Made by a program: the position numbers and the translations under genes. The notes under the pieces were generated by a model that worked only from the letters and a program-made list of their open reading frames with translations, was not told where the DNA came from and did no database searches. A stretch of 62,885 nucleotides of DNA, filler included, from Folioceros fuciformis (Eukaryota): the NCBI GenBank assembly GCA_049999805.1. It is 13 parts of 13 records of this genome, joined end to end, with 100 filler letters (N's around TTAATTAATTAA, not from the genome) between each part and the next. Parts side by side here need not be neighbours in the genome. Positions count along the whole stretch, not along the records: positions 1 to 4,315 come from JBNGIO010005579.1; positions 4,416 to 5,741 come from JBNGIO010005580.1; positions 5,842 to 9,575 come from JBNGIO010005581.1; positions 9,676 to 12,243 come from JBNGIO010005582.1; positions 12,344 to 15,257 come from JBNGIO010005583.1; positions 15,358 to 24,636 come from JBNGIO010005584.1; positions 24,737 to 29,513 come from JBNGIO010005585.1; positions 29,614 to 33,693 come from JBNGIO010005586.1; 5 more parts are not named here. One strand, 5' to 3'. The stretch's first letter is position 1; every line of letters begins with the position of its first letter. Shown piece by piece: positions 3,612 through 43,700 of this stretch.

Positions 3612-4167
3612 TTACAGCTTCAGACATGTGTCTGGCTGCTCCGGTGCTGCAGCGATCAGTGTCGCTTCTGTTTTATGGTCCGCCTCTGAACAGGTTCGTG
3701 TGGGTGACTCTGTGAGTTTCACTAAATTTGGTAGCAGGGTGTTAATCCTGTCTAATGACTGATTTAGTGTGTTCCTCACAGCGTCCACAGCATCTACCAG
3801 GTCTTCTGATTGAAGGCAGATCGCTCTTTGATGCCTGTCTTCGTGAATCGCCTCAGACCTGGTTAGGTAAGTTAATTCCAGCAGACGATCCACCTTCGCT
3901 TTGATTTCTTGCACTGATTGTTGGGTTAGAGAGGTTTTCTCTCGTCTGAGCAGAAAGTGAGTGCCTTCTCTGATTGGCGCGCCTTGCGTACTGCGTTGCC
4001 TGGAGAGGATCCCGTCTCCGCTTAGATTCTAGGTACTGCCTGCGTTGCTGCAGCTGGCTCGAGCAACGGTGAAGCTCCTCAGCCCTTGCGAGCCAATCAA
4101 GATCAAAATTTCTAGGTGTTCGGCTTGATCCGTTACTGCTCGACCAGATGAAAGCGTCGTGTGACAT
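3612..4167 (-). pseudogene. Extra 5' ORF (ORF0) of element A, about 185 aa, one frameshift near 3915
   Basis: ORFs 3853-4167 and 3612-3914 overlap and fill the PBS-gag gap. The stop lies 6 nt before the gag ATG. Confidence 0.6.
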
Positions 4168-4251
4168 TGCGCAGCATGCGGCTTAGGTTACGAAGCTTGG
4201 GGAGATGGTGCGTATGCTTGATTCGCAGAATGGCCCAGATCGCACGCGGGT

Positions 4252-4263
4252 GCTCTGATACCA
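4252..4263 (-). promoter_or_regulatory. Primer binding site (tRNA-iMet)
   Basis: TGGTATCAGAGC immediately after an LTR-terminal CA. Confidence 0.95.
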
Positions 4264-4315
4264 TGAGCGACAAATTGTTTATATGAACACACACTTCATT
4301 CATCGAATAATGTTC

Positions 4316-4415
4316 NNNNNNNNNNNNNNNNNNNNNNNNNNNNNNNNNNNNNNNNNNNNTTAATTAATTAANNNNNNNNNNNNNNNNNNNNNNNNNNNNN
4401 NNNNNNNNNNNNNNN
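4316..4415. other. Artificial contig linker (first of 12; others at 5742, 9576, 12244, 15258, 24637, 29514, 33694, 46062, 51170, 57145, 59468; each 100 nt)
   Basis: Identical N-run/TTAATTAATTAA/N-run cassette. It puts stops in all six frames. Confidence 0.99.
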
Positions 4416-5741
4416 TATTCAGTAATTAGGTTAATTAGGAACCTTAGTAGTAAACCCTAATATGACAGTTATTATGGTTGTAACTACATTGTGCGGTGAC
4501 GCTGACTTAGCGTTCAATCGCCTAAGGAAATCTATCGATCCTAAATATCTTTCCATGGTATCAGAGCACAGTCTCTGCAATGTGTCCGGTCTGCAATAAT
4601 TCTGCGTGCTGCAATGCGATCACTGTCACTGAATTGGGTCGTTTACTCTACCTCCTTCAGATCAAGTGGCCGCATGTTGCACCAGCAGTAATTTGGGAGA
4701 TCATCCGCTCAGGTTGCTTCCCCAATTTGACCGATTGACACATTTCTCTCTTGCTTGCAATCTCTGCTAGCAACTTCTGCCAAGAAATGATTCTGCACCA
4801 TTAGTCTTCACCAAATCTTTACAAGAAGTTGCTGTAAACAAATGAGTTCCAGATTTTTCCCTGGAATAATGTATTGCAGCAGCATCTTGGGAGTATGGCG
4901 GGGCTCCAGAGGCAGCGTCGACTTGCTAGAAGGGCAGCAAGGCAAGCTGCAGATGCAGCATATTATCATCAAGAAGAGAGATTTTATCAAGAAACACTTG
5001 CACCTGGCAACAGGTGGCAGCAAGTGTGGATCAGATTGTGCATCATCCTAGAATTAATGGCAACCAACCTAGTTCAGGGATTTGACGCAAATGATGGGTA
5101 TGACTGGAGTCGGGTTGATATCTCAGATCTTTATCAGTAATAAACATGAACTCTTCGAAGTCCACGTTTGTCTTAGAATTACCTGCATCACCAAATCATG
5201 TTCAGAATATCATCTTTTCCTCTTTAGATAGCATTTACCAGCATCAACCTGAACTACCAAGTCCTCAATACATTTGGTCATATACTCACCACATAGTCGC
5301 TAAAATTCATTCCGAATTTTGTTTCGCACAAAGCATTCGCCTGCAGGTCCTCCTCGAAGTAGAGAGTCTAGTAGGTCAAATGCACTCATGTAAGGCTAGA
5401 TTTCATCCAATCCCTGAGTCATCCTAAGTGCACAAGACATGGCAAACCAACAGCCATCTCAAGGCCCAGTCATGCTGGCCAAAGAGGACAAGTTTGATGG
5501 CGAGAACTTCAGCTTGTGGAGATTCCGAATGGAGGAGCTGCTGAAGTCAAGAAACCTGTGGGAGTATGTTGGTGCTGAAGTTATCAAGGCAGAGCCACCT
5601 GCCACAGCACCAGCTGATGAAATATCAGCATGGAAGTCTGCAAATCAGCAGGCACGGACATCCCTAACAATGAGCGTAAAAAGCTCACATATTGCCTCTT
5701 TAATGGGCACAAAGACAGCTGCCAATCTCTGGCAGCAGCTC
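4416..5741 (+). mobile_element. Ty1/copia element B 5' end (LTR end 4555, PBS 4556-4567, degraded upstream ORF 4842-5427, gag from 5439)
   Basis: CA-TGGTATCAGAGC junction; gag LAKEDKFDGENFSLWRFRMEELLKSRNLWEYV. Confidence 0.93.
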
Positions 5742-6166
5742 NNNNNNNNNNNNNNNNNNNNNNNNNNNNNNNNNNNNNNNNNNNNTTAATTAATTAANNN
5801 NNNNNNNNNNNNNNNNNNNNNNNNNNNNNNNNNNNNNNNNNCCTAGCCACCTCTTGCTCCTTCTTCTTCAGTCTTTTCTTGACAGCCTCGTCCTCCGAGG
5901 ACTCCTCCTCTAGGCTGTCCCCTGCTGAAGATGAAGAGGTCTCTGCTGCTGATTCTTCTGAAGAATCGCTCTCCTCGGAGGAATCTTCATCTGAGGAAGA
6001 TGACTCCCTCTTCTTCTTCCCCTTCCAAATGCATCAATACTCTGTCACACGCGCATTTCCCGGCTGCAACCTTTGCGCTGCGAATTTCTTTTTTCAAGAT
6101 TCGGAGCTATGGCGTTTTCTCTCCTCGCTAGCATTGTGGGTCACTACTACGACTGACCCTCACGCT

Positions 6167-6931
6167 ATGCCGAGAGTGAGAGGAAGACTACCAAAAGATC
6201 CCTCCTTTGGTAGGTTTGGTGTGTTGGAGGAGCAATATCATCTCCAAAATTTGAACCGGTTCTCCACAAATCCCTGCGTTTTTACTTCCCCGACAAGTCA
6301 CAACCAAAATATAGGTCAGTACAGTCACCACACACATGACAATCGATTTAGGCACCAAGCCTCTAACCCTCTTGCAGCACTCAGAAAAGAAGTAAGACAA
6401 AATGTGCAGAATGCACGTACTGTCTCATCTCAGAGAGCACGCCAACTTACGCATCCTGCCGTTTGCAGCCATTGCACGTATGACCCAAATTCATTTCCAA
6501 CAGCAACAGATCATTTGTTAATAGAGGTCTGCAAACTAATTAAATCACAAGCAACTCAATCACTACAGCGCTCTGTCGATTTTACAAATAGAGTCAACAG
6601 CACAAACAGGCTTACTGTCAACTTGTCTTCTCAGATCAGAACTGTTACCTTGTCTACTTTAATTACTACAATTGTTGAACCCCTTGCACAAGCACCGATT
6701 CAAATCTTGAAGGAAGAGGCTTTGACAGATTGGATGAAGATGGTAAAAGTTGTGCAAAACACATTTCCAAGCCACGTGGAGCAGCTTGAAGACCTTGAAA
6801 TCAAGGCTGGGTTACAGGCCGTTGTAGACAGCAGCATATGTCATACAACGCTCTTGGTCGTGGGAGCAAGAAAACACGGGGTTCTAGAAGAATCAGAGGT
6901 TTGGGCAGAGGAAACACAACACCACCTGTGA
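6167..6931 (+). CDS. ORF0 of copia element C (254 aa, MPRVRGR..., CxxC, coiled-coil-like)
   Basis: Uninterrupted ORF from ATG 6167, directly upstream of and overlapping the gag frame. Confidence 0.6.
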   Translation: MPRVRGRLPKDPSFGRFGVLEEQYHLQNLNRFSTNPCVFTSPTSHNQNIGQYSHHTHDNRFRHQASNPLAALRKEVRQNVQNARTVSSQRARQLTHPAVCSHCTYDPNSFPTATDHLLIEVCKLIKSQATQSLQRSVDFTNRVNSTNRLTVNLSSQIRTVTLSTLITTIVEPLAQAPIQILKEEALTDWMKMVKVVQNTFPSHVEQLEDLEIKAGLQAVVDSSICHTTLLVVGARKHGVLEESEVWAEETQHHL

Positions 6932-7250
6932 CCAATCCTTCAGACGCTCTTTCCTTATTTGGTCCCACATCCCAACCTTCTTCCTCACAATGTAGTTCAA
7001 CCACGGTAGACCCAACACTCACTGCTATTCAGAGAGCACGTCTTGCACAAGCAGCCACTGTTGCACATAATACTCGCTCTACACTAGTTGCTTGCACACT
7101 AGCAGCCCAAGTCATTGCAACTATGGAGCAGCATCATCTAGTTGCCCCTATCACAAACACTACTATAGTCAACAACGTGAAGATTGACTTTAAAGAGAGA
7201 GATCGATTTGCTGGAACACAGTTTGATATTTGGGCTTTACGAATGTTGGC
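6838..7250 (+). pseudogene. copia gag N-terminus (element C), truncated
   Basis: IDFKERDRFAGTQFDIWALRM, then an abrupt junction with a minus-strand RT. Confidence 0.8.
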
Positions 7251-7253
7251 CCA

Positions 7254-8054
7254 CCAACATTCTGTACGGAACATGAGACATCTCCTAGATTTCTACTTGG
7301 GAGCTAGGGCATTGTTCCTGCGTGAGTATTGCTCCAACTGCAACTCGAGTGGCTGCAGGATTTGCATCTTTCATGTTAAGCTTATCCAGAAGTCTGTCTA
7401 CGTAATGTTTTTGGTGTAGCACAATTGTTCCAGATTGCTTATTAATCATAGCTTGTACTCCCAAGAAGAAAGTGCACTTCCCTAGATCCGTCATCTTAAA
7501 CTCCAGCAACAGGATTCTTTTAACTTCATCGAGTATATGCATGGAGGACCCTATAATCAGGGTGTCATCTACATAAAAAGGTAAGTATGTCACCTCATTA
7601 CCTCGCCTATAGATGTAGACACTTCCATCAGCTGCTGACTGCTTGAATCCGTGCTTAAGCAAAAAATTATGCAACCGCCTGTTCCAGCCCCTGAGCGCTT
7701 GTTTTAGCCCATACTGTGTTTTCTTCAATCTATAGACACATTTAGGGTGTTTCTTACTGACAAAGCCTTCTGGTTGGCTCATATAGACGGTCTCCTCCAA
7801 CACACTGTTGAGAAAAGCAGTCTGTACATCCATTTGATGTACATTATATCCTTTGGCAGCTGCTATGGCTAACAGTGTCCTAACAAATGATGAGCGTACA
7901 CAGGGGAAAAGGTTTCGTTATAATCAATGCCTTCACGCTGGGAGAAACCACGCACCACTAGTCAAGCCTTGAAGCGTGCCGTGGTGCCATCGGGATTAAG
8001 TTTACGCTTGAAAACCCAGCGGTTTGAGATTGGTGTCCTACCAGGTGGTAAATT
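7254..8054 (-). pseudogene. copia reverse transcriptase fragment
   Basis: QMDVQTAFL, QYGLKQ, FYVDD, MTDLG motifs. Confidence 0.93.
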
Positions 8055-9575
8055 TGATGAAACCTAAGGGTGGTTAGGTGAAGAGTGTTATCAGCATATT
8101 AAGAAATATAATTAATTATGTTAAGTCAACTTACCGTTTCATTAGGGTTACGTCTTTTGGCGAATAGACATACCTTTTTATATTAGTCTAAATTGGACTT
8201 ACCTGAACATACATAGTAATTGTACTTGAAGTTTCTTGACAAGATGTAATTATTTAATAGTTTAATATCTAATTAACCTACACTAAATGCTTTAGTTTAT
8301 GATGGTATCAGAGCTTTAGAGGTGTTGGTTGCATTCTAGAGAATGCACATCAAATTGTGCATACTTAGATATGCACAAACATGTGTTTTGGTTCATATCT
8401 TTTCAAGAAAATGTTTCTTGAAAATATAAACAAAACACATTCAAGAAACTAAACTTTGATTGTTTATTTGAATTTATTTGCTTGATTTTACAAACCTGAA
8501 AAAATTCCTAGCAGACCTTTTAGCAATTATGATAAAGGTCCGCTAGGACACATGTCAGATCATGAAAATAAGCATTTGAAATTGATTTATAAATTTAGAA
8601 TAAGAAGAATGCATTCCTATTCTTACAGTCAAAGTTCCAGCCATTCAGATGGCATAAAATTTAGAGGGCTACCAACGGCGACCTTATGCTGAGCGCCACA
8701 ATCCCTTGAGGGCTGGAGAGACAAGCATTTTAGAAAGGCTTCATCAAAGAGCCCAAGAATGGATCTACTGAAATCAAGACAGGCCTACCCAAATCATAGA
8801 GCTTGAACGGGCATTCAACACAATTGTGGAAAAGCTGTATCCAGATTTCCAATACCTGGCCTTTGAATCCATTCCTTGGGGACGCCCTCAAGAAGTAGCT
8901 GGTAACCCTAACAATTTTCTAACAGCGCAATCTGGCTCAGAGAATTGAATTACACTCACAGTATATTGATAGGCGTTATGCACATACAAACAGAACTATT
9001 TTAACTATGAGCATAGATGTAAGAGATGTGCAGGAACAAATTAGGCACATAGATTTCAAACTTCAAACCTTATTGAAGGCAGAGCTCTTACATTACCCTG
9101 TGTTTCATTCAGCTGCCATGAAATCTGTGAAAAATACAAACAATAGATATAAGTTTGCTGAGCCTAATGCTTGTCCTTCCTGTTCAACATATGCTCACAA
9201 CAGATGGACTAACAGAAGTAGTCAAATCATACAGAAGGAGAGAGAGCAACTTACCTCTCTGCATGATCCTATAGGGCCCGTAGAAGCCCTATGATCTGAT
9301 TTATTAGGTCTGGTCTAGGTTGATTTAGTTTCTGTTAGAGACAGCAACATTCCTACCTAGACAAATTATGGATTAATAAGGCATTTAGTATTTAGTTCAG
9401 CAATTATGCTATGTCTACGTTTTCGCAAGATAGTGATGCTGAAATAGAGACAGAAGAAGATACAGTGCCTTACGTTTATCCTACTAGAGCACATACCTCC
9501 AACATGGCAGACCTAGCACCTACGTTTGTTGCTATTTCATATGATGCCTTCAAGGAGAAGGACAGATTTGGAGGT
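8055..9575 (+). mobile_element. Ty1/copia element D 5' end (LTR about 8055-8302, PBS 8303-8314, ORF0 8649-9294, gag from about 9411)
   Basis: TG-start LTR inserted into an RT; TGGTATCAGAGC; FKEKDRFGG gag start. Confidence 0.9.
8649..9294 (+). pseudogene. ORF0 of element D, degraded
   Basis: ATG 8649 frame with stops and a frameshift. The C-terminal part (IDFKLQTLLK...KFAEPNACPSC) is homologous to 11157-11387. Confidence 0.7.
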
Positions 9576-9675
9576 NNNNNNNNNNNNNNNNNNNNNNNNN
9601 NNNNNNNNNNNNNNNNNNNTTAATTAATTAANNNNNNNNNNNNNNNNNNNNNNNNNNNNNNNNNNNNNNNNNNNN

Positions 9676-10282
9676 GGGGGGGGGGAGGGATATCACCGCT
9701 TCGCAGGGACTTTGAGTCTTGGGTGTTCCTATGGGACCTCCTCATTTTGTTCGTAGGTTTGTGGATGCAACGTTGGATGAAGATTTAGCTCATATCATGA
9801 AGCTCTCACAAATCAGTGATCCTCATATTGCGTTCGGTATTCTTTTCTCTTGTTTTGCATGGCGACTAGGTTATCCCACTCGAACTATTGTGCCTTCTCC
9901 ATTTTTCTTATCAAGTCTCAGTAAGTTTGACAATCAAGTTATGCAAGCTCTTGGGGACATCATAGGTCCTGGCACCTTCGAGTGCGCCGTTGGTGATTTG
10001 GCTTGGAAGCAAGCTTCCTTGCCGATCGCCTTTAGAGGGGTTGGCCTAGCTCCCTTAGTAGTTGGGCCCTCTTGGCTCCAATTTTGGCCTCTCAATTTTT
10101 GCTGCAAGATTTCCCTCTTCTTGAAGGTTTTATCTCAAGCATTAAGGATGTCGGTTTCCCTTTACAGGTATCTCTTAGGTGAGCGAGGGATTCTTTACCT
10201 TTGGAGGCTTATGAGGCTCTACTTTCTTTTACTTTCCAGGAAAGGGTTGAGGCATCAAGGGGTCTCCAAGCTAAAGAATACA
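9676..10282 (+). mobile_element. Non-LTR retrotransposon fragment (CRE/R2-type, post-RT region)
   Basis: VLGVPMG..FV...DPHIAFGILFSC...WKQASLPIAFRGVGL resembles the thumb and post-RT motifs of RLE-type LINEs. Confidence 0.7.
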
Positions 10283-10284
10283 TG

Positions 10285-11380
10285 TGTTGGATAGATGATT
10301 AGGGTTCAGTAGTCTAGTTAAGTTAAGAGCTTTCAAAGACATACCTCTTCATTAGGGTTACGTCGTTTGATTAGATCACAACGTTTCAAAGGTGACTTAA
10401 GTTATTCTTATGACTTATACATTATTATTGCATTCTTGACACAATGTGATTAATTTCGTATGCTTAATTGATCTGTAATTACCTAAATTTGTTATGGTAT
10501 CAAAGCAATATCATAGCAATAGGATGCAGGTTGTGCTGTAATGAATGCACATTTAAAAAATGCATTTTAAAGAATACATTTATATATTTTTCTTGTTTAT
10601 TTTGATCTAGAAATTAAGTTTCTTGATCAAGAAACAACAGAGAATAGAAAACATATATTTTGTGTTGATTGTTTATGAAGATGCACTTATAATTTCTATT
10701 AGGTTAAGGGAGTGATCCCGACGCATCCCCTCCAATTTGCTGCCTCAGCAAAATCAACAGGTATGCGCTAGGACAACTACCTAATCTATAGTCAGATTAT
10801 TAGTGGCATACATATATAACACAAAATATTTAAAAAGAAATTCTGTTTAAACAAAAATCTGGCCAAATGAATGGTCGATCGAATGGATGTCCGACATCAC
10901 CTTGCTGAGCGGATTCATCACCAGAATCGTCGCAGGGGGCCAGAAGTCATTGCACAGGCATCATGGAATGCTGCAGCAGAACGACTCCCACAAAGAAACT
11001 ATAATCATAGAGGTTTCCTAATTTCTCATTTCTCTCAATCACCTACAGTTGACGAATTGATAAACAAGATTGAGGCACACCAGCAACAAGTTGACAGGCG
11101 CTTTAATAGTATCTCACAAAGGATAACTGCAGTGACTGTTGACTTGCATGATCTAATTGGAAAAAATAGATCATTTGGACTTTAAACTACTAACCTTGTT
11201 GAAGCCTACCTTGCTTGCTAATCCTGCTTTCAGAGGAGCACCTTGTAAGCACACTAAGAAAACAAGTAGAGTTCATAAGTTTAACGATCCAAATTTTTGT
11301 TCTTCTTGTGCACTACATTCATACAACATAGTGGAGATTAGAAATCAGAGAATAGGGAACACTGCACAGCATCAGGGGTT
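10285..11380 (+). mobile_element. Ty1/copia element E 5' end (LTR about 10285-10494, PBS TGGTATCAAAGC, ORF0 10871-11387)
   Basis: LTR shares TTCATTAGGGTTACGTC and other blocks with element D; the ORF0s are homologous. Confidence 0.85.
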
Positions 11381-11387
11381 AGTGTAG
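10871..11387 (+). pseudogene. ORF0 of element E, frameshift in the A-run near 11161
   Basis: ORFs 10871-11185 and 11157-11387 join; LDFKLLTLLK...KFNDPNFCSSC. Confidence 0.7.
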
Positions 11388-11885
11388 AGGGAAAAAACTT
11401 TCGGGACTCCCCTTTTGAAGAGCAAAATAAACAGGTTGTGATTTTTTGTGCGAAGATGCGAGTGAATCGGCTTAATATGGAAATAATGCTTGGGTATTTA
11501 TACCGAAACGGCTCCTTGGCTCTTGGTGTTTTGATAGGATTGAGTGACAGGACCAAGTAGAAGCGAGTGCGAGAGTGTCCTTGGCCCTTGGTGGTTCGGG
11601 GGGCACTCTGGTGTCTATATATGCACCCCCCCCTGAAAAAAAAGAAATAGGGGTAGGGGCTTAGGTAGTTGTGGACTTAGGTGAAAAAGACGGAGTGTTG
11701 TGACTGGGCAACAGTAGCTGGATGGGCGACCATCATGGAAGTAGAACCGGCGGTAGTGGAACGGGAACGGCAGTATAAAACCCTAGAGAGACATAGGGGA
11801 ACCTAGGCAGTAATCGAGGCAGGAGCATCCGCAGGTTGAAACGGGAGCGGGATGAGGCCCAGAGCAAGGAGGCAGAGGCGAGAGG

Positions 11886-12190
11886 TGTTGAGTTATCGAG
11901 CTCTATATGAGCTAAACTCATGTGGTGTTAGTTATCCCAGTTGGGTTCATACTAGACTAGTTCTAGTTATTAGTGAACTTAGGATAGTGTAGATTATCCC
12001 ATATTGAACCTGGAAGTTGTGTAGCCCTAAATGTACTACTTAAATGGAGACCTCGGACCTCCATAGTAAGACAGTGGTGATGTGTATTGTTTTCATGGTT
12101 GTGATCACCAATACCACCCTCTCTTCTCTCCTCTCCTCTCCTACACTTGCACGTAGATTGAAGTCGATCCTATTGACATGTTATCAGAGC
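11886..12190 (+). repeat. 293-bp LTR (11886-12178) plus PBS
   Basis: TGTTGAG...TTGACA followed by TGTTATCAGAGC; near-identical to 15391-15695. Confidence 0.95.
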
Positions 12191-12343
12191 CCGGTGCAGG
12201 CGGTGCAAGATCGGCGTAGGAGGTGCTGCAAGAGGCAGCAAGANNNNNNNNNNNNNNNNNNNNNNNNNNNNNNNNNNNNNNNNNNNNTTAATTAATTAAN
12301 NNNNNNNNNNNNNNNNNNNNNNNNNNNNNNNNNNNNNNNNNNN

Positions 12344-15257: not shown

Positions 15258-15390
15258 NNNNNNNNNNNNNNNNNNNNNNNNNNNNNNNNNNNNNNNNNNN
15301 NTTAATTAATTAANNNNNNNNNNNNNNNNNNNNNNNNNNNNNNNNNNNNNNNNNNNNCCTCCTACGCCGATCTTGCACCGCCTGCACCGG

Positions 15391-15695
15391 GCTCTGATAC
15401 CATGTCAATAGGATCGACTCCAATCTACGTGCAAGTGTAGGAGAGGAGAGGAGAGAAGAGAGGGTGGTATTGGTGATCACAACCATGAAAACAATACACA
15501 TCACCACTGTCTTACTATGGAGGTCCGAGGTCTCCATTTAAGTAGTACATTTAGGGCTACACAACTTCCAGGTTCAATATGGGATAATCTACACTATCCT
15601 AAGTTCACTAATAACTAGAACTAGTCTAGTATGAACCCAACTGGGATAACTAACACCACATGAGTTTAGCTCATATAGAGCTCGATAACTCAACA
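15391..15695 (-). repeat. 293-bp LTR (15403-15695) plus PBS, second copy
   Basis: Reverse complement of 11886-12190 with about 2 differences seen; different flank. Confidence 0.95.
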
Positions 15696-17851: not shown

Positions 17852-17854
17852 TGT

Positions 17855-29513: not shown

Positions 29514-30362
29514 NNNNNNNNNNNNNNNNNNNNNNNNNNNNNNNNNNNNNNNNNNNNTTAATTAATTAANNNNNNNNNNNNNNNNNNNNNNNNNNNNNNN
29601 NNNNNNNNNNNNNAACACTTTAAAGGTGGCTATCTAGATTGACTATTCCTCCACCTCTCTGGGTTTATACTTAAACGGAGATGCAAACCCAGCATGGTCT
29701 CAAGATGCAAGGCAACCTTTCACATCTCCAAACATACACCTTCAACTTTTAGTAGGGTCTCTCAAGATTGACAAAGGGTTGAAGGAGACTTGAGTAGAGG
29801 CCATTGATGATGACTATGTCGAAACTCCAACAATATGATGGCTATGTGTAGCAAAACCTTTGGATCCTTGTTGTGAAACCTTGGGGCACATATTCAAGAT
29901 TCTACTGAACGAACATCTCATAGAGTAAGAGGCTATTATTGCTTCCCTAATACTTGAAAGACCAAGATGTCTAGCCACGTGATAGTGATTCAACAGCTAA
30001 TAATTGTGTTAATAGAATCAAGAGTGCAAGGTCCCATTGTGTCATTCGTGGAGTAGAATCAGCACTAGTTGATGGCCTACGAGAGTTAGTGAGTACCAAG
30101 GGACATGATCTAGTCCTCGCAGTTCCACAGGCATTTCGGATCAGCAGTTGGACAAGGACGACAAAGGCCTGACGTTTGGTGCCGTGCAGCGCTCAGGGCA
30201 TTCGATGTCCTCGTCAGTTGCTGTGGAAGGAACTTGGTAAGCAAAGCGAACCCTACCCGGACCTTGTTTCTTTGAAAACAGAGCAGTGGACTCCGCGTGA
30301 AAATCACGTGCGGAATCTTAGCATCCCACATCCACCAGAGCATAGAGATAGCGACTGGGAAG

Positions 30363-30545
30363 GCCAAGGTGTCCCAGTCTCTACTTCTGTGTCACCTAGC
30401 TTGCACCTTCCCAGTCCAAGGTGTCCCATCCTCTACTTTTGTGTCACCTTTTCACGGAGAGGAAACTAGCTTGCATCTTCCCAGTCCAAGGTGTCCCATC
30501 CTCTACTTTTGTGTGTCACCTCTTAACGGAGAGAAACTAGCGTGC
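30363..30545. repeat. About 70-bp tandem repeat, about 2.5 copies
   Basis: CCAAGGTGTCCCA.(C)TCTACTT.TGTGTCACC three times. Confidence 0.85.
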
Positions 30546-30829
30546 ACCAAGCTGGAACCAAAGAAAGAGGGAACAAGGCGAACAGCAAGCATGCAAGCGG
30601 GCAGATCATTGTTAGTCATTATGTAGACTTGGGTCAGGCAAAGGCAGTTATTGCGGATCGGGAGTAAGAGAGGAGACAGCTGCACCTCGAGTTGATCTGG
30701 TTGGTCGGACGAGGATACCATCACCTCAATTTGAGTGCTGCAGTCACTTGGGATTCATTCATTAGTCTCTTACCATGAAGGGCCATGAAGAGGACAAGGA
30801 GACTCATCAGCGGTACAAGAATGATCGAC

Positions 30830-32916: not shown

Positions 32917-33793
32917 ACGGTGACCGGACGCGCCGGTGGGAGGGGGACCCCTTGGTGACCGGATGCAACGATCATCTCAAGCCCTATTCTCATCATCTTC
33001 GGTGACGGAAGAGCGATCGCTATGCAGCTGCGGGATAGGGTAGGAAGGGAATGAGTTGCATCGTATGAGTTGCAGAAGAAGAAACAACGAGAACAAGTAT
33101 GGAATCCATTTATGGAGATCCTTGCCCTACATGTTGTCCATCAACCGGACATGTAAGCTGAATTTTTTTGACTCAGGTCACTTGATCCGATTTGGTGGTC
33201 TCCCCTTTGTTTGGACGCGCAGTGATGCCGTATCTGCAAGATTTCATCGCAAGTATGTGATGTTCTTACTGAAAGATCTTTTCCTCCGATTTCAGCCGTT
33301 GCTGTATTGCAAGCCTTCCGTTTCTGATGTCTCCCGAAACCCTAAGGCTTGAGCCATGTCTATATTACGTGTTGTCCTCGAGCCGTTTCTCTTGTAAGCT
33401 TGAACGTCAATCCCTCGCGGTTCTGATGAAACTATTTCGGCAGGTTTGGGAGGGCTGCCTGCACATCTTCAGAAGCAGTATGGTCTCCTCGGACAATTGG
33501 ACCTGCAGTTCCAAGGTGATGGACCAGTTTTTTAGCCACTTGGATTCTGGTGCCAATTCGCATCAACCAGTCAGTTGTTTGGCATCATAATTCATCAACC
33601 ATTGTGTAACATGCTTTTCGCGGCATTTTTTTCAGAGCATGACAATGCAATGCTGGAAAAGTGTGTTCAGGGGCACAAGGAAGTCACAGAAGCNNNNNNN
33701 NNNNNNNNNNNNNNNNNNNNNNNNNNNNNNNNNNNNNTTAATTAATTAANNNNNNNNNNNNNNNNNNNNNNNNNNNNNNNNNNNNNNNNNNNN

Positions 33794-34126
33794 GGATTAG
33801 ATGGTTTGACGTATCGAACTTACGCAGGTGGTAAAGGATCCATGAAGGATGACAATGGCATAATGCTTCCTTACTTGTTTGAAGAAGAGCTCAAAGTTTG
33901 CCTGGAATCTGCAAGACTACAATTAATTGAACTGTGTTCAGCTCCTACAGATATTGGTGGATTTATTATGCTTGAAGAAAGCCAAGATCCAGAAACTTGT
34001 CCAAGTCAACTTAATGCCAAGTGTGTGATAGCTTTTAGTGATGAGGAAGCTTTGTTAGATCAACTGTTTTCTTGTACAATACCTGGATGCTATAATTTGT
34101 ATCCCCACAAAATGTTAAAAATTTAA
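33794..34126 (+). CDS. 3' part of an unidentified AT-rich ORF
   Basis: Open from the contig edge with protein-like composition; family not recognised. Confidence 0.3.
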   Translation, partial: GLDGLTYRTYAGGKGSMKDDNGIMLPYLFEEELKVCLESARLQLIELCSAPTDIGGFIMLEESQDPETCPSQLNAKCVIAFSDEEALLDQLFSCTIPGCYNLYPHKMLKI

Positions 34127-34914
34127 ACTTTACTTATTTATTTTGTCTTGTCAAAGTAAGAAATAAAAAATTATCTTGAATTAATTTGATATTTTTATTT
34201 TTATCATTCTTAGTTTATTTAGTAAATTTTTTTCTAATTGAAGAATATGATTGATGTACTAATCTATCAAGATATATATAATGTTTTATGAAAAATAATT
34301 ATTTTTATAGAAGCTAGATTTGATGGAAGACTAAAGGGTATTAATTAATATACAACTTAAAAAACAAACTATAAGATGGCTGTCACTAACCACAGGTCTA
34401 TTTCATTGTTGCGAAACGCACTAACCAAAATGTGTCTGGACTCCAATGCGTGGAAAGGAGAAACCTTTTGAATCCAGCTGTGTAACTTCAAATCCACAAT
34501 GACACGGTCTGCGTTTCTAACACACAACACAATACACAGGTAGCCCATAGAGATGCCGAGGCCATCAGGAATGAACGTTCGGATGTTGTCCCCAGCGGTG
34601 CAGTGCACCCCCGGCCGTACCCACCAACACCTTAGGGCTCGGGATAGGCTGACAGTTCGGGGGCCTTGCGACGGTCCTTGAACGGACTCCGTGTTTCCTG
34701 ACGGAGCCGGTAGGAGTCGGAAAGGGACATCTTGGACAAAGTCGGCACACCTTAAGCGTGTCTACGTACAGAAATGTCTCAGCTGCGGTAGGCTTGACGC
34801 TGTGTTGCTGCAGGGAAATGGATCAACCGAGCTAACTGAACCCCCACGCAAAGAAGCAGACTGCGCCACAGCCAAAGGCAGTTCCGGGTTACAAATCTCA
34901 CGGTTTGCCATGGC

Positions 34915-37597
34915 ATGAGGCCCAGCTGCTCGCAACCGGACTTTCTGTGTTGTGCATCGTCGGTGACAATGTCATCAAGCAGTGGCTGCACCAGCCCAGC
35001 TGCTTGCTTCCACTCAAGGGGGACTAAGCATATATTTTTGGGGAGTTATTGGTCTGCCTCCACAGACCTGCGCTTTCCCAAGTCTTTTCCGTGTAAGGGA
35101 GCTCGCCGTGCATCAGTACTGAGGGCGTCTGCCGAGAAAGGGAAACAGAGGGGACCCAAGGACAGGAAACCTGGGGAAAAGCAGGGCAAGAGGAAAGACA
35201 ATGTTTGGAGTGCAGACAATGAGGCTGCAAGGTCAGGTGCAGGCTATTCAGGGAGCAGGAAAGATAATGTCTGGAGTGGAGATAGCAATGCTCGGGGCTC
35301 AAGTGGAGCTAACGCAGTCAAGGGAGGCAAGACGGGTGGTAAAATCACTCCGTCCGGGACCGGGGTCCTCCCGACTGGAAGCAGGGCAGGGAGTTTGGGT
35401 GGCGAGAATGGTGTAGGCCTTTCGGCTGATGGTTTTTCTGCGACGGATTCTGCGAAAAGAGACTCGGAGAACGATGTGGGCAGTCGTTTGCAGAAGTTCG
35501 AGGATGTGGTGGAAGGTAGTGGTCGTTACGCAGAGAATAGTTCCCAAGGCTCCTCTTATGCAAGGGTACGGATTTCAGCCTCCTTGCCAACTAAGGTTGA
35601 GGCTGTGCTGCAGCCTGAGGTACTCTTCGTTACCATGTGCTCCATACACGTCCATCCTTTTAACCTTGAAGTGACCTGCTTGTGTTATGATCCCCTGATG
35701 ATGCATTTTTCATGTAGGAGCTGGCTGCTTCTCCACTGTGGAAAACATTTTCAAGCAGTGTCTCTGGAGTGTGGAGGGGTGTCGGAGCAGCTTTCTCTCC
35801 CATCACAGCTGACATGGAGGCAATGTCTCTCGGAGAAGATAATGAGTACCTTTACGATGCACATGTCCTTTGTATTGTTCAGCCCACTGAAGTCAAAGAA
35901 CAAGATGGGATCAGTCCAAGGCTCGCAAGAAAGGTTTTCTCGAAATTTGACAATCCTCACGGGGAACAGGGCCTGGGCGAGGTGGTTGTGCAACATGCAG
36001 ACGTGGACGAGCTGGATTTGATGGAATCTGGTGTATTGAGGGGCGAGGCTGGTGAGGCCGTCCTTTTGGATGAATTTACTCCAGTTGGACTAATAGGCAC
36101 AGAAGAAATCCAGTCTGTAGAACAGGACATGCTACCAATTCCTTGGGAGGATCAGGACCAATTTCTAATTCTAAGTGACCTAGAAGGTGTGGATAGTGTT
36201 CCAGATACAGAGTGGGAATCGGAAATAAACGTGGCAGGAGAGATTGTGGTGGACTGGGAGAAAGGGGAAGGAGCCTTGTCGAATTTAGGGCTTCCAAAGG
36301 AGCTTGTCGGGGACCAAATTACTGCTGACTGGAGAACCATCATAGAAAACGATGAAAAGGTGGAAAAGCGGTGGGATGCTGTGTGGGATGTTACAGAGAT
36401 TGAAGTGTTTGAAGGTCATGTAGAAGCTTTTTCCCCTGAGGAAGTTTTTTCGGGCAGTTCCTCCCTTGAAAATTCCGAAGCAGCATGGACAGAAAATATA
36501 CAGGAACATTTCTCCCCTGCCCCTGCTAGCACTGAAGGTATTGAGGACCATAGTTCAGAAACAGTCCACGGTGATTGGGATGACGTGATGGAAGAAGATT
36601 TGATGGGGCAAGAACCGGGCTTAATTTTCTTTGAGGTTGGCTGAGACCTTGGCGATCTGTAGGTGCGTTTTTGGTTTGGACTGATTCAATCTAAAGTGAA
36701 TGTAACGCTTCTTGCAGGATGGGTCATACTCGAGGGGCCCGCTGAGACTCTTGGCACAAGCTACCAGCAGGGGCGATGACCAATATGCCTTGCCACCAAC
36801 ATTCAAAGTAGAGCATGTCCGTATTGTTTACACATACTAGTTCCATCCTGTCGCTCTTAAGGTGTCAGTTGGATGAGTGTATGGGGGAAAAAAAAAACTC
36901 TGATCTAATCTACCCTGCATCAGTGCCTAGTGTCGGGAGGCCACAGACGGCTGCGAGTAGTTCACACCATCTCCATCGAAGACGGCGGCGAAGAGGTACA
37001 GGTGCTACGTGTTGTTGCCTATGAAGAGGAATGGGTGGGTCCTGCATCCATGCCATCGATCAGGTGCGTGGTGCAAGTGTGCTGTATGGTACTACAAGCT
37101 ACTTCCGCGGTGTTCCTTTAACATTTAACACTAGACGCGCCGTGTGTCTTGGCCGTGGCAGTGGAAGCGGTGGCCATAAGTTGGTGCCATTTTCTCGGCG
37201 CCCCAGGCTGCTTCCCGATCAGTTGACAGGATCTTGGAAGTCGTTTGCGAAGATTGCTTCTGTTGGGTGCCCACCGCGGGGAGAGCCATCAGTTGTGTTC
37301 TCCACCAAAGAGGCCTCCGTCATGCGAGAGCCCCCACCTTTGGTCTCTCTTCCTGAAGGAGAAGAGAAAGCAGCCCACATCGGGGACATCACGGACGTGA
37401 GCATACTGTGGTTGCCTGGAGGTATCTCAGCTACTGTAGATATTCAGGAGGAGGGCGTTTTGACAATTGGCGCTAGCTGGTTGCTTGCAGACGGTACCAG
37501 AATAGCTGTCGAAAGGGATTATAACACGGAAGGGCACCTCGCCGAGGTTCGCACACTGTCTGAAGTGAAGGGAGGTTGGATAGGAGGCAGGATGTGA
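34915..37597 (+). CDS. Plastid-targeted DUF3598-like protein; exons about 34915-35619, 35718-36635, 36718-36816, 36924-37063, 37163-37597
   Basis: Transit-peptide-like N-terminus; SGVWRGVGAAFSP, FFEDGSYSRGP, GGHRRLRVVH, LWLPGG motifs; GT-AG introns keep the frame. Confidence 0.75.
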
Positions 37598-38582
37598 AAC
37601 TTTTCCTGACGCCAAGTGTATCAGGGTGTGTGCCCGCTCACTTCTTTGCGTCCACATTTACAAACTGACACTAAAACCAGTACGCATACTCGTACGCATA
37701 CTATGGGCATAGACGGTCTAACATTTGGGACAGAAGGCCTTAGACAAAATACGTATTTAGTTGTATGATAAACTCAAACTTTGTCCTGAAAACACTACCG
37801 CTATAAACCGCCAGCTGCCTGAACCTGCAACCTGTAATTAAGGGGGAGAAAAGAACGGTACAGTTCTGCACTTGAACAGGGGAAATCCTATCTACATCTG
37901 TCTCCTGCGCCTGCAAAACATGGAGACTTGATCAGAGAGTTCTTGTTCAGAGCAACTGGCATAAGAGTGGTCCTCCCCCCTCCTGCAAAGCACATCCCCG
38001 TTATCACCGAGAAGCGGTCAAGTTCTCCACCGGTCGTCGCGCGTCCACCTGTACACAGATATCATGTTAGCATGCAGCATGCCATGTCACTGGAGATTCT
38101 CACCTACCTGAGACCTGCAGCAAACTCAGAAAGGGAACATTACGTGGTTGAAAGTGCACATTCCCTATAAACAAAGTCATATCCCATGAACTGGTCAAAG
38201 ATTTAACCAGAGTGACCGCAAGTGTTGCTGGCAGCTGCACACAAGGGCAGGTGACCTGCTCATTCATTACATACACTAGACGCAAACAGGCAGACGCACA
38301 CAATGAACCTGGGAATGCATTCTTTGAACCCGGCATGCGCACAAACCAGGAAATGCACAACTAACATTAGCAAAGTCCCAGCCCAAGAACCGAAAGACTT
38401 CAGATTGCAGGGCACAGCATCGTGATCCTGCACACCACCTGCACAGAGTAAAATGGTCTGTGAGCTGCTACCACCTCAGAGACTTCCAAGAGGAAAGATA
38501 GCTTGGGTGGACCTGGACACGCTACCCAAGTGCAGTAGGCCAGGAATGGGACAAACCAAAACAATTCCAGTCCTCAGGCTCT

Positions 38583-39938
38583 TCAAAACACGTCTCCATT
38601 GGCCACTGAAGCACTTCCATTTCCAGCATGTTCCTCTCCCCGGTCCCTGTTTTCCCGTTCCTTGTTCCACTGCTCAATCCTTGCTCGCCTCTCTGCACTT
38701 CCTTCTCTTGCTGGACTGCCCCTGTTACGACGACCTAATGGGCTACGACTTCTGCGCCGACCTGCAGGATTGTCACTGTACTCAGGCCTTGCCCCGTACT
38801 CAGGCCTCCAGGGACGCCTATCATCTCGATCTGGGCGACGATCCTCCCGCTCAGCATACCTCCTGTCATAGCCCCTGGCTCCCCGCGGAGGCCTTTCATC
38901 ATACGCACGATCATGATAACGATCATACCTGTCATGGTCCCTGCGAGGACTCACACTCCTAGTCCTACTTCTGCTCCGGCTCCGACTGAACCTTTTCTGA
39001 TATCCAAATAATTTCCTCCTAAGTTCCCTGCAAACCAGAACTTCCAAAAATCAGCTGCGCTGCTAACTGATAGAACAACACAAGGTAGTGAACGATCATC
39101 TACCTGCCAATTTTCTTCAAATGCATGAAATTGCAATAGCCACCACGATTACAGGTATTTTCCTCGTACTGCCTGCAGGTGGCTTCTCGAAAATCAGTAA
39201 CTGGAGAAAAATCAACTAGGATTGGTCGGCCTGCAAATGGACAAGACGGAGTAACCACCAGTCAGTCTCTCCACAACGACATGGCAGCAGTAGTAAAACC
39301 TAGACCTGCTTGAACCCAGGACATGCCTGCGTAGAATCGTCCTGATAGAGCCTGAAGTGCTGCTGCAGCTTGTTCTTCCTCTCGGAACTGCACATAAACG
39401 TTCCCAACCTGGAAGACCAACAAGAAGAACAACACGGGAGGACAACTCGTCTCAGTTCACCATCTCCACACAGGTCCAAACAAACAACCTCGCGAACAGT
39501 ACACGAACGACTTACCATGTGGTCAGCAAGGTTATCGCAAACGTTGAGGCTCTCCAGCTCTCCATACTTGCTCAGCTCCTCATAGATGTCCTCAAAAAAG
39601 TCCTGTGCATTACCCGGACAAATCAGAATCAGCAAGATATCCCCCAAGTTAGGTCGACAAAGCATTACACGAGTTTCCATCCGATGCAGGCAGAAGCATA
39701 CCTCAAAATGCTGCTGGACCTTTCGCGGATCCATATTTTGACCATTTAGATCCATTCCGGGTGTAACCATGTCTGGACGCTGATACATGTTGGACAATAA
39801 TAAAGTAGGACTGATGGTAGGTCGATTGTGAAGCCTCGAGCATCGATCACCATGTCGGCAAGCACCGATCTTAAAGTAGAAGGGACAGTTAACACGGTCC
39901 TTCTCTGTGCCAAATATGGACGCAAGATGCTCCGCCAT
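38583..39938 (-). CDS. U2AF35: Splicing factor U2AF small subunit; exons 39938-39702, 39602-39516, 39408-39327, 39230-39104, 39027-38583
   Basis: [36 protein letters not shown], second CCCH, RS domain, [12 protein letters not shown]; frame intact after splicing. Confidence 0.97.
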
Positions 39939-40739
39939 AGTTTGTATCTCGCCCTCAAGTACTCCAAGGGCGAGACAGCGCAACGTACCTACCTACAATA
40001 CTCCCAGGAAAGGATACACACAGACAAGGTGGAGGTCTGTAAACACAAGCTGGCGAGGCGAAGGACCCCGCCGGCGTCTGCAAGCACAGCCTCAAGCGAT
40101 GGTGCGCAGGCGGACGAGGGTTGGGGCATCCTAGCTTTTCAGAAGTGAAAGGACTGCGCAGTTGGGGGCACGTCACCACCGTCCCGACTCCTCAACCACA
40201 GCGAGGACCGCTTGGTTGGCTGCCAATACACGTATGTCTAGTCTAGGGCTCTCGCAGAATCTACGAATTAGGTCATCCCTGTATGAACCTGATTATTTGA
40301 AACTGATGGACATGGTGTTGGCCCTCCCTAATGGGAAATTCGATAATCGAAGATTCTTCGCTTCGTGCGATCCTTTCCTGTATATGCTTACATATATGCT
40401 TGGGACCTCTCGACTTGCCTCGCTCCCGTGTGAGAACGAGATGCAAAATCCCACCCATTCTTAGGTCAAACTCCTATGAATAACTATTTTCGTTATGTTA
40501 AAATATCATAAAATACGAGCTAGTTGTAAAATAATGAGGCAGACATGTAGAAGAAAGTCAGAATTTATATTATTTTTAACTCTGAAAATGATGAAAATCT
40601 AATTGGAACCCTTGTGTTAATGGTCCTTTCCATATAAACCCAACTATGCAAAATTTTGTGGGTTGCTGCCACTAGGCCTAAGGCCACATAGGTCAATGTT
40701 TCCCATGTAGCTCATACAAGTCCTTTGGCAGTGGCACTT

Positions 40740-43700
40740 TGTTAAAAATAAATGATTTAGTTAAACCTAACACACAGGTTAAGCTATCTAAGGTTGACAT
40801 ATGAACAGTCACTTAGAAAGTATTTAAACAATTTTGCACTCTCATTTTCAAGATGATAATCATGTTTTATGCTTTAGCTATTCTTTCGCCTCCACTCGTA
40901 TTTTGCACATGGTATCATAGCCATGCTTTGTTTATTAATACAATTCCTGAAAGATGCCGAGAGTGGGTGGTTCATCTAGATGTCCGAGTCATGGTGGGAT
41001 CTCGAGACACTCTCGGCAAGTAAGACACCCACCAAGATAAAAGGCACCGCTACAAATCGATATTGATACGGCGCTCGATATCTATAAACAAAACTACCCC
41101 ACTCATTGGCTGCAGAGGCTTGTTGAATCACATAGTAGAAGGGGAGCATTTGATTTTTATGTAATAAAAAATCGAGAGGTTGATCGCCTCTATAGAGAGC
41201 GTTGTTATAGGAGAGGGCAAAACCCTGATTTGCACTACTCTCCTAGATCAGAAACATCTAGTCCAGCAGATTTTCTAAGAGCGCCTATTTTTTATGCATC
41301 ACACCCTTCACTACATACTTCCAACAAATCAGCCACAACGCAACAGCCTGCAACAACACAGGCTAGAGATAGCGTTAGCCCCTGCACTGGATTTAGAAGA
41401 GTATTCGACATAAGTACAGAATCTCTTCTAATTAGAGTTCAACAATTGCTATCACACGTAATTACAAACCAAGAATTATTGAAGAACATAGTTCTGACAC
41501 GACATCCTGAAATTGAGCAAGCCATTACTGAGAGCACACAAGAAATCTCAAGAGACATCAATGATGTATCTGATTTTTTTAAATTGATTGACTTGAGGCT
41601 TCACGAGCGAGAACATGGCTTCTCTCATTCAGGATCAAGCTCGATTCTTCGAGCATTGTGAATCTTCCGCTGCTGCAGAGCAGGGGTCATGCAGGCGCAA
41701 GAGTGCTCCTCTTGCATCTTGATCTGAATTGATGCATTCTTCCCCTGCACCTTCTGATTAGACAGCATTCTTCAGCAAACATTGGTCCACTTGTACTTGT
41801 CACTTCAGCAGACAGTCATGACGGTTAGTTTTTGTTTTTAACCTAATTTTTAAAAAGGCTTTTCATGAACCGTTATCCAAGTTAGGGTTTGCAGGCATGG
41901 ACATGACCTTTCACGACAGGCATGCTTGAATAGCATGCTGAGGAGCTCAGCAGGAGCTGATCCTAGCAATAAAAGCTAGCACCCTTATTTCCAGTTGAGC
42001 AGCCCAGCACTCCATTCCTACATGAATTGGTTAGTGTTTCTACAAATCTGAGTGCGGAGCATGAATGAAAACTTAGCTACATTAGGAGGAACCATAGTTC
42101 TTCTTAATCGTCTAGTTTCTCATGTCCCTTGAAGCCAAGCTGAACGCCCTCATCAATAACTTAAACAATCTTACGTTACAACTTGCAAACTCACCACTCC
42201 AACCACCCATCATAGCTGCCCCTTCTACATCGTTCACATTAGATGTCAAAGGCAAGGACAACTTCGGTGGGACTGGTTACCAGGTCTGGAGAGTCCGAAT
42301 GAAGGCTGTCCTTATTGCCAGAGGTGTGTGGACAAGTGTTGATGGGAGTCTTCAGAAGTCTGACCCCAAAACAAAGCCAGATGAATACGCTAAGTGGGAG
42401 TACCACAATAGTGTGGCCATGGCTTTGCTCATCAATGCTTTAACTGCAGACCTTGTCCCTGATGTTGAATTCTCGACATCGGCTAAGGAAATTTGGGATC
42501 AATTGGAGACCACCTACCACTCCACAAACATGATGTCACTATCAACTGTCAGGATGAAATTCTACTCATTGAAAATGAAGGAAGGAGAAAAGATAGCAAC
42601 TCGCACAAGCAAGTTTCGGTAGTTGAGAGCCCAGATCACGTCGTTGACTGGCAACAAGATGCCTGAAATCGAGGCTGTGTCCCAGCTGCTTCTCAGCCTC
42701 CCTCCTTCATACCAAAATTTCATTACCAGCCAAAATGCCTCCATCAAACCTGGTGTAGCTGCTGCCAACGCCCCCACTGTTGAGAAGGTGAGTGGAGCAC
42801 TCTACCAGGAAGAGCAAGCAAGGCTACTTCATGGCTTTGCTGTTTCTAAAGCAGCACGACCCAAGAAGGCGTTGGCTGTGAATTTTAGACCTCTTAAAGG
42901 CAAGTCTAAATTCAGAGGGGGAAACCAAGGTGGAAGCTTTTCTGGTCGATCTGAATCTGCCAGCTCTTCCACCAAACGTTCCGTCACCTGCAATTGGTGT
43001 GGAACTCCTGGCCACCGGGCACGAGAGTGCCGCAAACACAAGGCAGGTGAGCCACAGAAGCAGCCACGTGCCAACGTCGCTGTAAAAGAGAAGCAAAATG
43101 TTTACAAGGCACCAATAAAAATTCTTACCGTTTGCTTGTCAAATTCTCTTCACGATGATGGCTGCTGGTATCTTGACTCTGGAGCTACAACACACATCTG
43201 TAAGGAGAGGGAGTTGTTCTCCACCCTAGACCTTGTGCATATCCATGACAAGGTGCTGCTAGGTAATGAGCAGAGTAAGTCTAGCCTGCACATAGAAGGC
43301 AAAGGCACTTGTGTCTTTAGACTGCATGACAACACAGATCTCACATTAGAAGATGTGTTGTATGTACCCAACATGGCCAAGAACCTCATGTCCATGAGTA
43401 GGCTGATGCAATTACGTACCTTTTGTATGCGTGCTGACTTCAACCATTGTTCATTCTACAGGAAGGCATACCCTGAAAAATGTGTCTTCAAAGGCATACT
43501 AGATCATGACCTTTACAGATTGAATATAGTGTGTTGCCAGCCACCTACTCCCAAGCATGTTGCACACTCCACTACCACACAAACGCTTAGTTCTAAGCAG
43601 GAGGCAGTCCTATGGCATGCTAGGTTAGGTCACGTCAATAGAGCCAAGCTAATTGACATGTCTGTTACTGAATGCCATAGAGAACCCTTGCCAAAGTGCT

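Follow-up and report, generated by a model that had tools for sequence, protein, structure and literature searches.

Heterogeneous and mostly broken sense reading frames ahead of gag in Ty1/copia fragments of Folioceros fuciformis

Introduction

Do Ty1/copia retrotransposons of Folioceros fuciformis carry a gene of their own in the interval from their primer binding site (PBS) to gag? The question is raised by a window of 62,885 bases (assembly GCA_049999805.1), the whole stretch of DNA analysed here, which is made of 13 contigs of 1.3–12.3 kb separated by twelve identical spacers (44 N, TTAATTAATTAA, 44 N). Six loci in this window, A to F, have sense open reading frames (ORFs) in the leader, that is, ahead of gag. 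The initial annotation had described them as ORFs of about 170–255 codons and had read them as a candidate undescribed accessory gene family, ORF0, recurring within one copia lineage; it suggested a protein made bicistronically or by splicing, with a possible part in anti-silencing, RNA binding or targeting. Its observation was partly confirmed and its interpretation was partly supported.

The loci are best read as 5′ termini from five or more distinct Ty1/copia families, most of them dead. Real former genes were probably present in at least two independent leaders, a statement to which we assign a probability of about 0.55. The finding is otherwise mainly corrective: as judged by sequence comparison the six frames are not one gene family, D and E being the sole homologous pair; four of the six are broken; two are indistinguishable from chance; and the class to which they belong had already been tallied.

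Openness of the leader frames

The frames were located as follows, in the coordinates of the window.

A, 3853–4182, minus strand: upper frame, 109 codons from stop to stop, with an ATG at 4167; its length alone is within chance
A, 3612–4028, minus strand: lower frame, 138 codons, in the same frame as gag with one TAA between
B, 4838–5140 and 5119–5427, plus strand: two leader pieces, of 100 and 102 codons, each in a frame of its own
C, 6167–6931, plus strand: ORF of 254 codons, starting MPRV
D, 8649–8922, plus strand: upstream part, reading ATG GCA TAA, followed by another stop and then by a change of frame close to 8933
D, 8923–9294, plus strand: open part, 123 codons, homologous to E
E, 10871–11185 and 11157–11387, plus strand: leader ORF in two frames, with one frameshift, colinear with D
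F, 40954–41661, plus strand: leader ORF of 236 codons, interrupted at codon 29 by an in-frame stop, after which 206 codons are open (41041–41661)
F, 41662–42121, plus strand: non-coding spacer, with 7, 13 and 11 stops in the three frames

Sense frames ahead of gag were thus open at all six loci, but only C had a leader ORF intact from ATG to stop. In A, B and E a frameshift was needed to join two overlapping frames (76–138 codons per piece), and the first in-frame ATG of B was at 4895, not at 4842. The cut-off of at least 250 codons that has been used for extra ORFs (eORFs) was reached by C alone (254 codons); F had 236 codons with one stop, and the pieces of A, B, D and E had 76–138.

The longest sense frame of each leader was compared with those of 2000 first-order Markov sequences of the same composition. 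Three leaders exceeded this expectation clearly: C (262 codons, p = 0.001), F (206 codons, p = 0.0005) and D (123 codons, p = 0.0075). The sense frame was longer than the antisense frame in five of the six leaders, the exception being E, and in the three open leaders the antisense frames were much shorter (78 codons in C, 88 in F and 62 in D). No tandem array was found within any of the leader ORFs, and repeats do not explain their openness. In F, one stop was present in the 236 codons of the leader ORF and about four defects in the approximately 1310 codons of gag-pol, while the spacer between them had 7–13 stops per frame. These densities indicate that the F ORF was kept open in the same way as gag-pol and that the spacer was not.

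Codon usage was scored with a stop-free normalisation, under which the Pfam-verified pol ORFs ranged from +0.076 to +0.165; C was outside the scored set. D scored +0.076 and the first piece of E (E1) +0.055, at or just under the bottom of the verified pol range.

A protein block common to D and E

The leader ORFs of D and E were colinear over 98 codons, across the frameshift of E, with 40 of the 98 residues identical (41%) at a nucleotide identity of only 52% (blastp E = 2.4e-9). Comparison of all leaders by blastn revealed no DNA similarity between any two of them, D and E included. The summed BLOSUM62 score of the D–E alignment was 207 in frame, compared with −16 and −30 in the other forward frames, which hold 8–14 stops; the alignment was found via the protein frame, which inflates this contrast and has to be counted against a coding interpretation. 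The same is true of the mismatches, which fell 47/37/58 at codon positions 1/2/3, a skew that is weak alone (chi-square about 4.7, 2 df, p about 0.1). Synonymous divergence (dS) was saturated, and no ratio of non-synonymous to synonymous change (dN/dS) was derivable. The leaders of D and E cannot otherwise be aligned, yet a single frame has kept 41% identity, and selection on the protein is the best explanation of this similarity.

The two leaders also have a common layout, the ORF beginning 334 nucleotides (nt) past the PBS in D and 364 nt past it in E, at the ninth ATG in both. Homology of the N-terminal parts of D and E was considered and rejected (p = 0.13). The AlphaFold model of the D/E block placed helices at residues 4–28, 33–55 and 85–112, at a mean predicted local distance difference test (pLDDT) score of 58, which is low confidence. 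The helical, coiled-coil-like character ascribed earlier to the ORFs fits these three long helices, but the model is not a confident one. A predicted complex of two copies of the D ORF scored 0.02. The block is a small orphan protein domain common to two families with unalignable leaders, and it offers a handle for experiments.

Is there one ORF0 family?

Smith–Waterman alignment of 33 cross-element pairs of leader pieces, each with 400 shuffles, left only D with E1 and D with E2 above all shuffles. The next best pair was C–F, whose local p of 0.022 is unremarkable among 33 tests; D–F had p = 0.16 and the lower frame of A with D had p = 0.37. When all leader frames were compared by blastp, D–E alone was returned, together with short matches at gag starts. 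A profile built from D and E was run against every stop-to-stop frame of the window with 30 codons or more (1152 frames). It found D and both pieces of E, and nothing else below E = 3.9; no piece of A, B, C or F rose above background. The motif proposed to recur in D, E, F and, weakly, A is therefore real for D and E, but its matches in F and A did not rise above shuffles; it is limited to D–E, since no other pair is significantly alike. Profile similarity between families, on which a recurrent ORF0 family would depend, was not significant beyond D–E, and we do not retain that family.

Nor do the elements form a single copia lineage. The pol proteins of A and F were only 31–35% identical over 426–457 amino acids, which indicates that A and F belong to deeply split clades, and their leaders, like the others, had no DNA similarity.

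Protein homology between C and F was a further candidate, on the ground of a common MPRV start and colinear motifs in a MAFFT alignment. It was rejected: the semi-global z-score was 0.04, lower than that of a reversed-sequence control (2.8). The gag stubs of C and F, compared in the same way, gave z = 6.5. The two ORFs begin with the same exact 12-mer (6167–6178 in C, 40954–40965 in F). In F this 12-mer pairs with a complement 42 nt downstream (41008–41019), forming a predicted hairpin of 11 bp in which the start codon is buried (−27.7 kcal/mol, z = −2.55, equalled by 5 of 200 shuffles), while no hairpin partner was found near the 12-mer of C. The 12-mer could be a common cis-acting RNA signal or a common N-terminus.

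Primer binding sites and copia identity

The window was searched with a 12-nt motif that we take to be the PBS complementary to the 3′ end of tRNA-iMet. With at most one mismatch it matched seven times, compared with 0.32 matches expected, and none of 100 shuffles reached seven. Five of the seven matches lay upstream of the leaders of A, B, D, E and F.

A PBS, 4252–4263, minus strand: exact 12-mer
B PBS, 4556–4567, plus strand: exact
D PBS, 8303–8314, plus strand: exact
E PBS, 10495–10506, plus strand: one mismatch
F PBS, 40910–40921, plus strand: one mismatch

No PBS was found upstream of C in this motif search of the window. The distance from PBS to ORF was 32 nt in F, 84 nt in A, 327 nt in B (to the ATG), 334 nt in D and 364 nt in E. 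The statement that five ORFs directly follow a PBS thus holds for the presence of an upstream PBS, but nearness applies, and then loosely, to F and A only, the distances in B, D and E being 327–364 nt. In the elements with both ends, the leader from PBS to gag ATG measured 730 nt in A, 871 nt in B, 1096 nt in D and 1200 nt in F. Leaders of 0.73–1.2 kb are unusually long.

The gag regions and neighbouring element ends were as follows.

A gag-pol, 336–3611, minus strand: copia domain order, with one in-frame stop at 3300–3302
B gag, N-terminal part, 5439–5741, plus strand: DUF4219 and Retrotran_gag_2; ends at the contig end
C gag-frame ORF start, 6838–7235, plus strand: about 28 residues of the gag N-terminal motif recognisable
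D gag start, 9411–9575, plus strand: match to the motif MSTF...FKEKDRFGG only; ends at the contig end
F gag-pol, 42122–46061, plus strand: copia order; some 1310 codons, interrupted by about four stops or frame changes; ends at the contig end
Long terminal repeat (LTR) end of another element, 11886–12223, plus strand: with its own PBS (12179–12190); truncates E before any gag

In A and F, Pfam identified DUF4219, Retrotran_gag_2, Pol_BBD, gag_pre-integrs, rve, SH3_retrovirus and RVT_2, in copia order; the integrase precedes RVT_2 in both, and the Ty3/gypsy order, with reverse transcriptase (RT) before integrase, was not found. In B, Pfam identified DUF4219 and Retrotran_gag_2. The gag of C and D was recognised only by its short N-terminal motif, through blastp matches to the gag of A and F across 21–28 residues, and the two stubs had no match in Pfam. 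No gag of E was found on its contig, where the LTR of another element begins by 11886. Gag was accordingly seen behind the leader ORF as a Pfam domain in A, B and F, but as a short motif in C and D, and not on the contig in E. A search of F gag against longer predicted proteins returned no homologue. None of the contigs reaches a 3′ LTR, so that any paired LTRs and target-site duplications would lie beyond these fragments.

The LTR end at 11886–12223 was 99.4% identical over 338 nt to 15358–15695 on the reverse strand, with PBS matches at 12179–12190 and 15391–15402. The two stretches, one closing contig 4 and the other opening contig 6, belong to one LTR family and may be the same locus assembled twice or two copies. 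On contig 11, the gag start of an element related to F (51935–52250) comes about 250 nt past a copia RT fragment (51270–51684); the pol of this relative is 68–94% identical to that of F at the protein level, and the element is either 5′-truncated or without a long leader.

Relation of the frames to gag

The arrangement of leader ORF and gag differed between elements. In A, gag is in the frame of the leader ORF, behind a single TAA. In B, gag is in the −1 frame, and 11 nt separate the end of the second leader frame from the gag ATG (5439). In C, gag is also in the −1 frame, and the gag-frame ORF, with its ATG at 6838, overlaps the C ORF by 94 nt. In D, gag is again −1, behind a 116-nt spacer with 2–5 stops per frame, and in F it is +1, behind the 460-nt spacer. 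The proposal that some copia elements carried a genuine extra sense ORF separate from gag is supported by the spacers of F and D and by the protein-level conservation of D and E.

Programmed −1 frameshifting into gag was considered and rejected: a usable overlap (94–133 nt) was present in C only, without an in-phase slippery heptamer. The overlap was about 10 nt in B and none in D, F requires +1 and A is in frame. Because the arrangement differs between elements, a common frameshift or fusion mechanism is excluded and an extension of Gag is rejected for D and F; A could still fit one. Leaky scanning through an ATG-free leader was likewise rejected, the leaders having no depletion of ATGs. In A, C and F the ATG of the ORF is the first or second after the PBS. 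The Pfam domain DUF4219 begins 18–47 residues past the gag ATGs proposed here, the position that it has in an ordinary copia Gag.

Copy number and variants of C and D

Logan contigs over 5842–9575 came from two sequencing runs of one sample and provide hints of copy depth and variants only. The segment containing C (6143–7410) is a single-copy unitig of depth 8–10, flanked by high-copy repeats at 6142 and 7410. D is multi-copy, with depths of 25–90 and many variants. The D frame (8923–9294) had at least eight variants, distributed 3/4/1 over codon positions 1/2/3 among the 40 of 227 variants listed. Another copy of the D family has 26 extra nt after 8933–8934, where the window copy shifts frame. 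In run X4, presumed to be RNA, a single 41-nt piece was found, on the conserved gag motif.

A Logan contig of depth 10, X1, links 8090 to 9384 via 19 other letters and skips the PBS, leader and ORF of D; the junction may come from a derivative with a deletion, from a different element or from an artefact of the unitig. Upstream of C, a CT/AG-rich low-complexity stretch (5842–6091) had a Logan depth of 430–857, compared with 8–10 in the adjoining unique segment. An acidic, serine-rich open frame lies in it on the minus strand (5794–6033); the plus strand is also open and continues into the C ORF.

Former genes or other origins

A number of observations weigh against former genes in these leaders. 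The longest sense frames of A (138 codons, p = 0.065), E (104 codons, p = 0.096) and B (102 codons, p = 0.29) were not exceptional in the Markov test; those of A and B are indistinguishable from chance and may be chance frames of a long untranslated leader. The codon-usage score was only +0.006 for F, −0.004 for the lower frame of A and −0.067 for its upper frame. Searches of Pfam with nine leader ORF pieces yielded sub-threshold noise only (E up to 1), and neither the plant mobile domain nor Transposase_28 was among these results. No predicted protein of near length resembling C or F was found, and nothing in the PDB sequences matched the leader ORFs below E = 0.1. The AlphaFold model of C had a pLDDT of 41, and the ESM Atlas recognition value of C was 1221, below the 2300 reached by most known families; the atlas returned no usable match for C. 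The leaders hold 5–25 ATGs each, and the ORF start of D and E would be poorly reached by simple scanning, since eight ATGs precede it. C, which lies in a single-copy segment without a PBS and with only a gag stub downstream, may not belong to an element at all. The variants of the D family show no sign of constraint and are consistent with neutral decay of dead copies. Run against 1.84 billion representatives, the D/E profile returned one marginal match, P0001 (E = 3.9e-4, summed over four repeats).

P0001, a repeated zinc-finger protein, was rejected as a relative of D and E and is probably spurious, D and E having no aligned His ligands. Both keep C-x2-C; a U1/matrin-type C2H2 zinc finger, which we take to consist of C-x2-C followed by two His ligands at the spacing assumed here, was not found in them. 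Related loci were absent from metagenome contigs (searched for D/E and F) and from viral contigs (searched for D/E).

Were the leaders simply long untranslated regions with cis-acting RNA signals, their frames being chance or relic and no functional protein ever having been made, the chance-like frames of A, B and E would be expected, as would the many ATGs ahead of the ORFs in B, D and E and the finding of no homologue, domain or confident fold for any leader ORF. The 12-nt string that is all C and F share, a hairpin arm in F, also looks more like an RNA signal. Against this stand the frames of C and F, which far exceed the length expected from composition (p = 0.001 and 0.0005), the openness of the F frame, equal to that of gag-pol beside a spacer full of stops, and the restriction of D–E similarity to one frame at 52% nucleotide identity; we regard untranslated leaders throughout as rather unlikely. 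Alternatively, the frames might be remains of an N-terminal extension of Gag, their stops and frame changes being later damage. The lower frame of A suits this idea, being in the gag frame with a single TAA between, in an element whose gag-pol is itself damaged (stop at 3300–3302), and so does the gag-frame ORF of C, which overlaps the end of the leader ORF. The spacers of F (460 nt) and D (116 nt) are, however, far more damaged than the coding parts, in B, C, D and F gag is read in another frame than the leader ORF, the C overlap holds no in-phase slippery heptamer, and DUF4219 stands after the gag ATGs where ordinary copia elements have it. Such an extension is highly unlikely.

Some frames, C above all, could instead be host or captured sequence brought beside a truncated gag by transduction or chance juxtaposition. 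The absence of a PBS, the single-copy depth between high-copy repeats, the mere 28 or so gag residues that follow before an antisense RT fragment, and an ORF left intact while the adjoining gag is truncated are all in keeping with such an origin for C. The C protein has, on the other hand, no near-length predicted relative and no Pfam domain, its ORF starts with the same 12 nt as that of F, itself 32 nt past a PBS, and in D, E and F the PBS and ORF are contiguous on one contig. We hold capture to be improbable. The best reading remains that the leader of an active ancestor had a real sense ORF of about 170–255 codons, separate from gag, no fewer than three times independently, namely in C, in F and in the D/E pair, and that, to judge from the sequences, the leader ORFs are probably lineage-specific, fast-evolving orphans of the type named eORF-5′F.

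If these former genes were expressed, the leader ORF would have been the first cistron on the full-length element RNA, and its product may have been a mildly basic, mainly helical helper protein acting on the element's own RNA or particle. Gag might then have been reached by reinitiation, shunting, internal entry or splicing; a route other than scanning is proposed because 5–25 ATGs precede gag. Our confidence in this specific first-cistron mechanism is much lower than in the former genes themselves. That deeply split copia clades of this poorly sampled plant lineage were bicistronic as a rule, with a fast-evolving first cistron in a leader of 0.7–1.2 kb that was translated and needed for the element cycle, seems unlikely. 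Were it so, the product might plausibly have countered silencing or have been a helper that binds RNA or associates with the particle; a 5′ accessory gene would then recur in Ty1/copia, perhaps after several gains, and would not be a peculiarity of Ogre and Retrosat2. If translated, the leader ORFs would extend, by copia examples, the small set of LTR retrotransposons in which a gene precedes gag, and one would ask how gag is translated behind a cistron of 170–255 codons and 5–25 upstream ATGs.

Comparison with known systems

Ogre, a Ty3/gypsy element of the Tat clade, has in ORF1 an extra sense ORF ahead of gag that is a stable part of the element, and Retrosat2 is a Ty3/gypsy element as well. 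Both are unlike A and F, whose pol is copia-ordered. Among plant pararetroviruses, badnaviruses and tungroviruses encode one or two small, partly coiled-coil, nucleic-acid-binding proteins ahead of a polyprotein on their full-length RNA and use non-standard translation to reach the polyprotein; their upstream ORFs are nearly without internal ATGs, which allows leaky scanning. The likeness to these viruses is a functional analogy only and, unlike theirs, the leaders here are not ATG-poor.

In rice Retrosat2, an ORF0 without assignable function lies downstream of the 5′ LTR and upstream of the gag-pol ORF (Gao et al., 2012, PMC3485330; PMC4093653). In the sections cited here, this ORF0 is reported to diverge strongly among homologues while gag-pol is conserved, in an element with LTRs of more than 3.2 kb (PMC3485330). 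The leader ORFs of the present elements share its position between 5′ LTR and gag-pol and are likened to it by description only.

The closest counterpart is the class eORF-5′F, defined by Neumann et al. (2019) for plant LTR retrotransposons in REXdb (PMC6317226). As far as the cited sections of that survey go, extra ORFs of at least 250 codons were counted in 582 Ty1/copia elements and fell into 45 similarity groups, all four positions and orientations pooled, and the extra ORFs of plant LTR retrotransposons were highly heterogeneous, with little similarity even inside a lineage. The same sections give eORFs as a feature of the group of Ogre, Tat and Athila, with a plant mobile domain in 57% of Ogre elements, and name only one copia group with a characteristic extra ORF, SIRE, in which it is 3′. 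The leader ORFs here resemble the class, so far as these sections describe it, in being sense ORFs between 5′ LTR and polyprotein and in being heterogeneous orphans without a common domain. Separation from the polyprotein was by stop-filled spacers in F and D, by frame in B and C, and by one stop in A. They differ from the class in that the cut-off of the survey, as stated there, is reached only by C. They differ from Ogre in that no plant mobile domain was found in them by Pfam. SIRE is similar in being a copia lineage with an accessory sense ORF, in 19 mutually dissimilar groups according to the cited sections (PMC6317226; PMC7264820), and dissimilar in that its ORF is 3′ of pol, whereas those here are 5′ of gag.

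Since eORF-5′F is already tallied in Ty1/copia in the cited part of the survey (PMC6317226), to call the ORFs undescribed was too strong. The review of Vicient and Casacuberta (2020) mentions upstream extra ORFs only in passing in the sections cited here (PMC7264820). No described 5′ ORF family in Ty1/copia was found in the literature covered, which excluded supplements and subscription journals. We conclude that the leader ORFs are new orphan members of a known, loosely defined class.

Other features of the window

The contigs of the six elements and the spacers lie as follows.

1–4315: contig of A
4416–5741: contig of B
5842–9575: contig of C and D
9676–12243: contig of E
33794–46061: contig of F
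4316–4415, 5742–5841, 9576–9675, 12244–12343 and eight further stretches: spacers

Because the window consists of separate contigs that have been joined, the neighbourhood of A to E is artificial and readings across spacers are void. Ty1/copia fragments dominate the content of the window by Pfam, and an Rfam search of the whole window gave 0 matches.

Probable pieces of host genes lie at 39300–39992 (minus strand), 37025–37597 (plus strand) and 57760–58620 (minus strand). By Pfam they comprise an ORF with a CCCH zinc finger, presumably resembling the small subunit of U2AF (U2AF35-like), the C-terminal domain of BFA1, which is a chloroplast ATP synthase biogenesis factor, and the zinc ribbon of TFIIB. 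Taken together, these pieces indicate that the host is a photosynthetic eukaryote. An open frame of 192 codons at 9716–10294 (plus strand) had no Pfam match and a coding-like score of +0.065; it resembles the C-terminal region of a non-LTR (long interspersed element, LINE) RT ORF. Two overlapping open frames without a Pfam family, of 308 and 393 codons, lie at 35718–36644 and 34840–36021 (both plus strand). The codon-usage score of the 308-codon frame, +0.157, was among the highest in the window and comparable with those of the verified pol ORFs.

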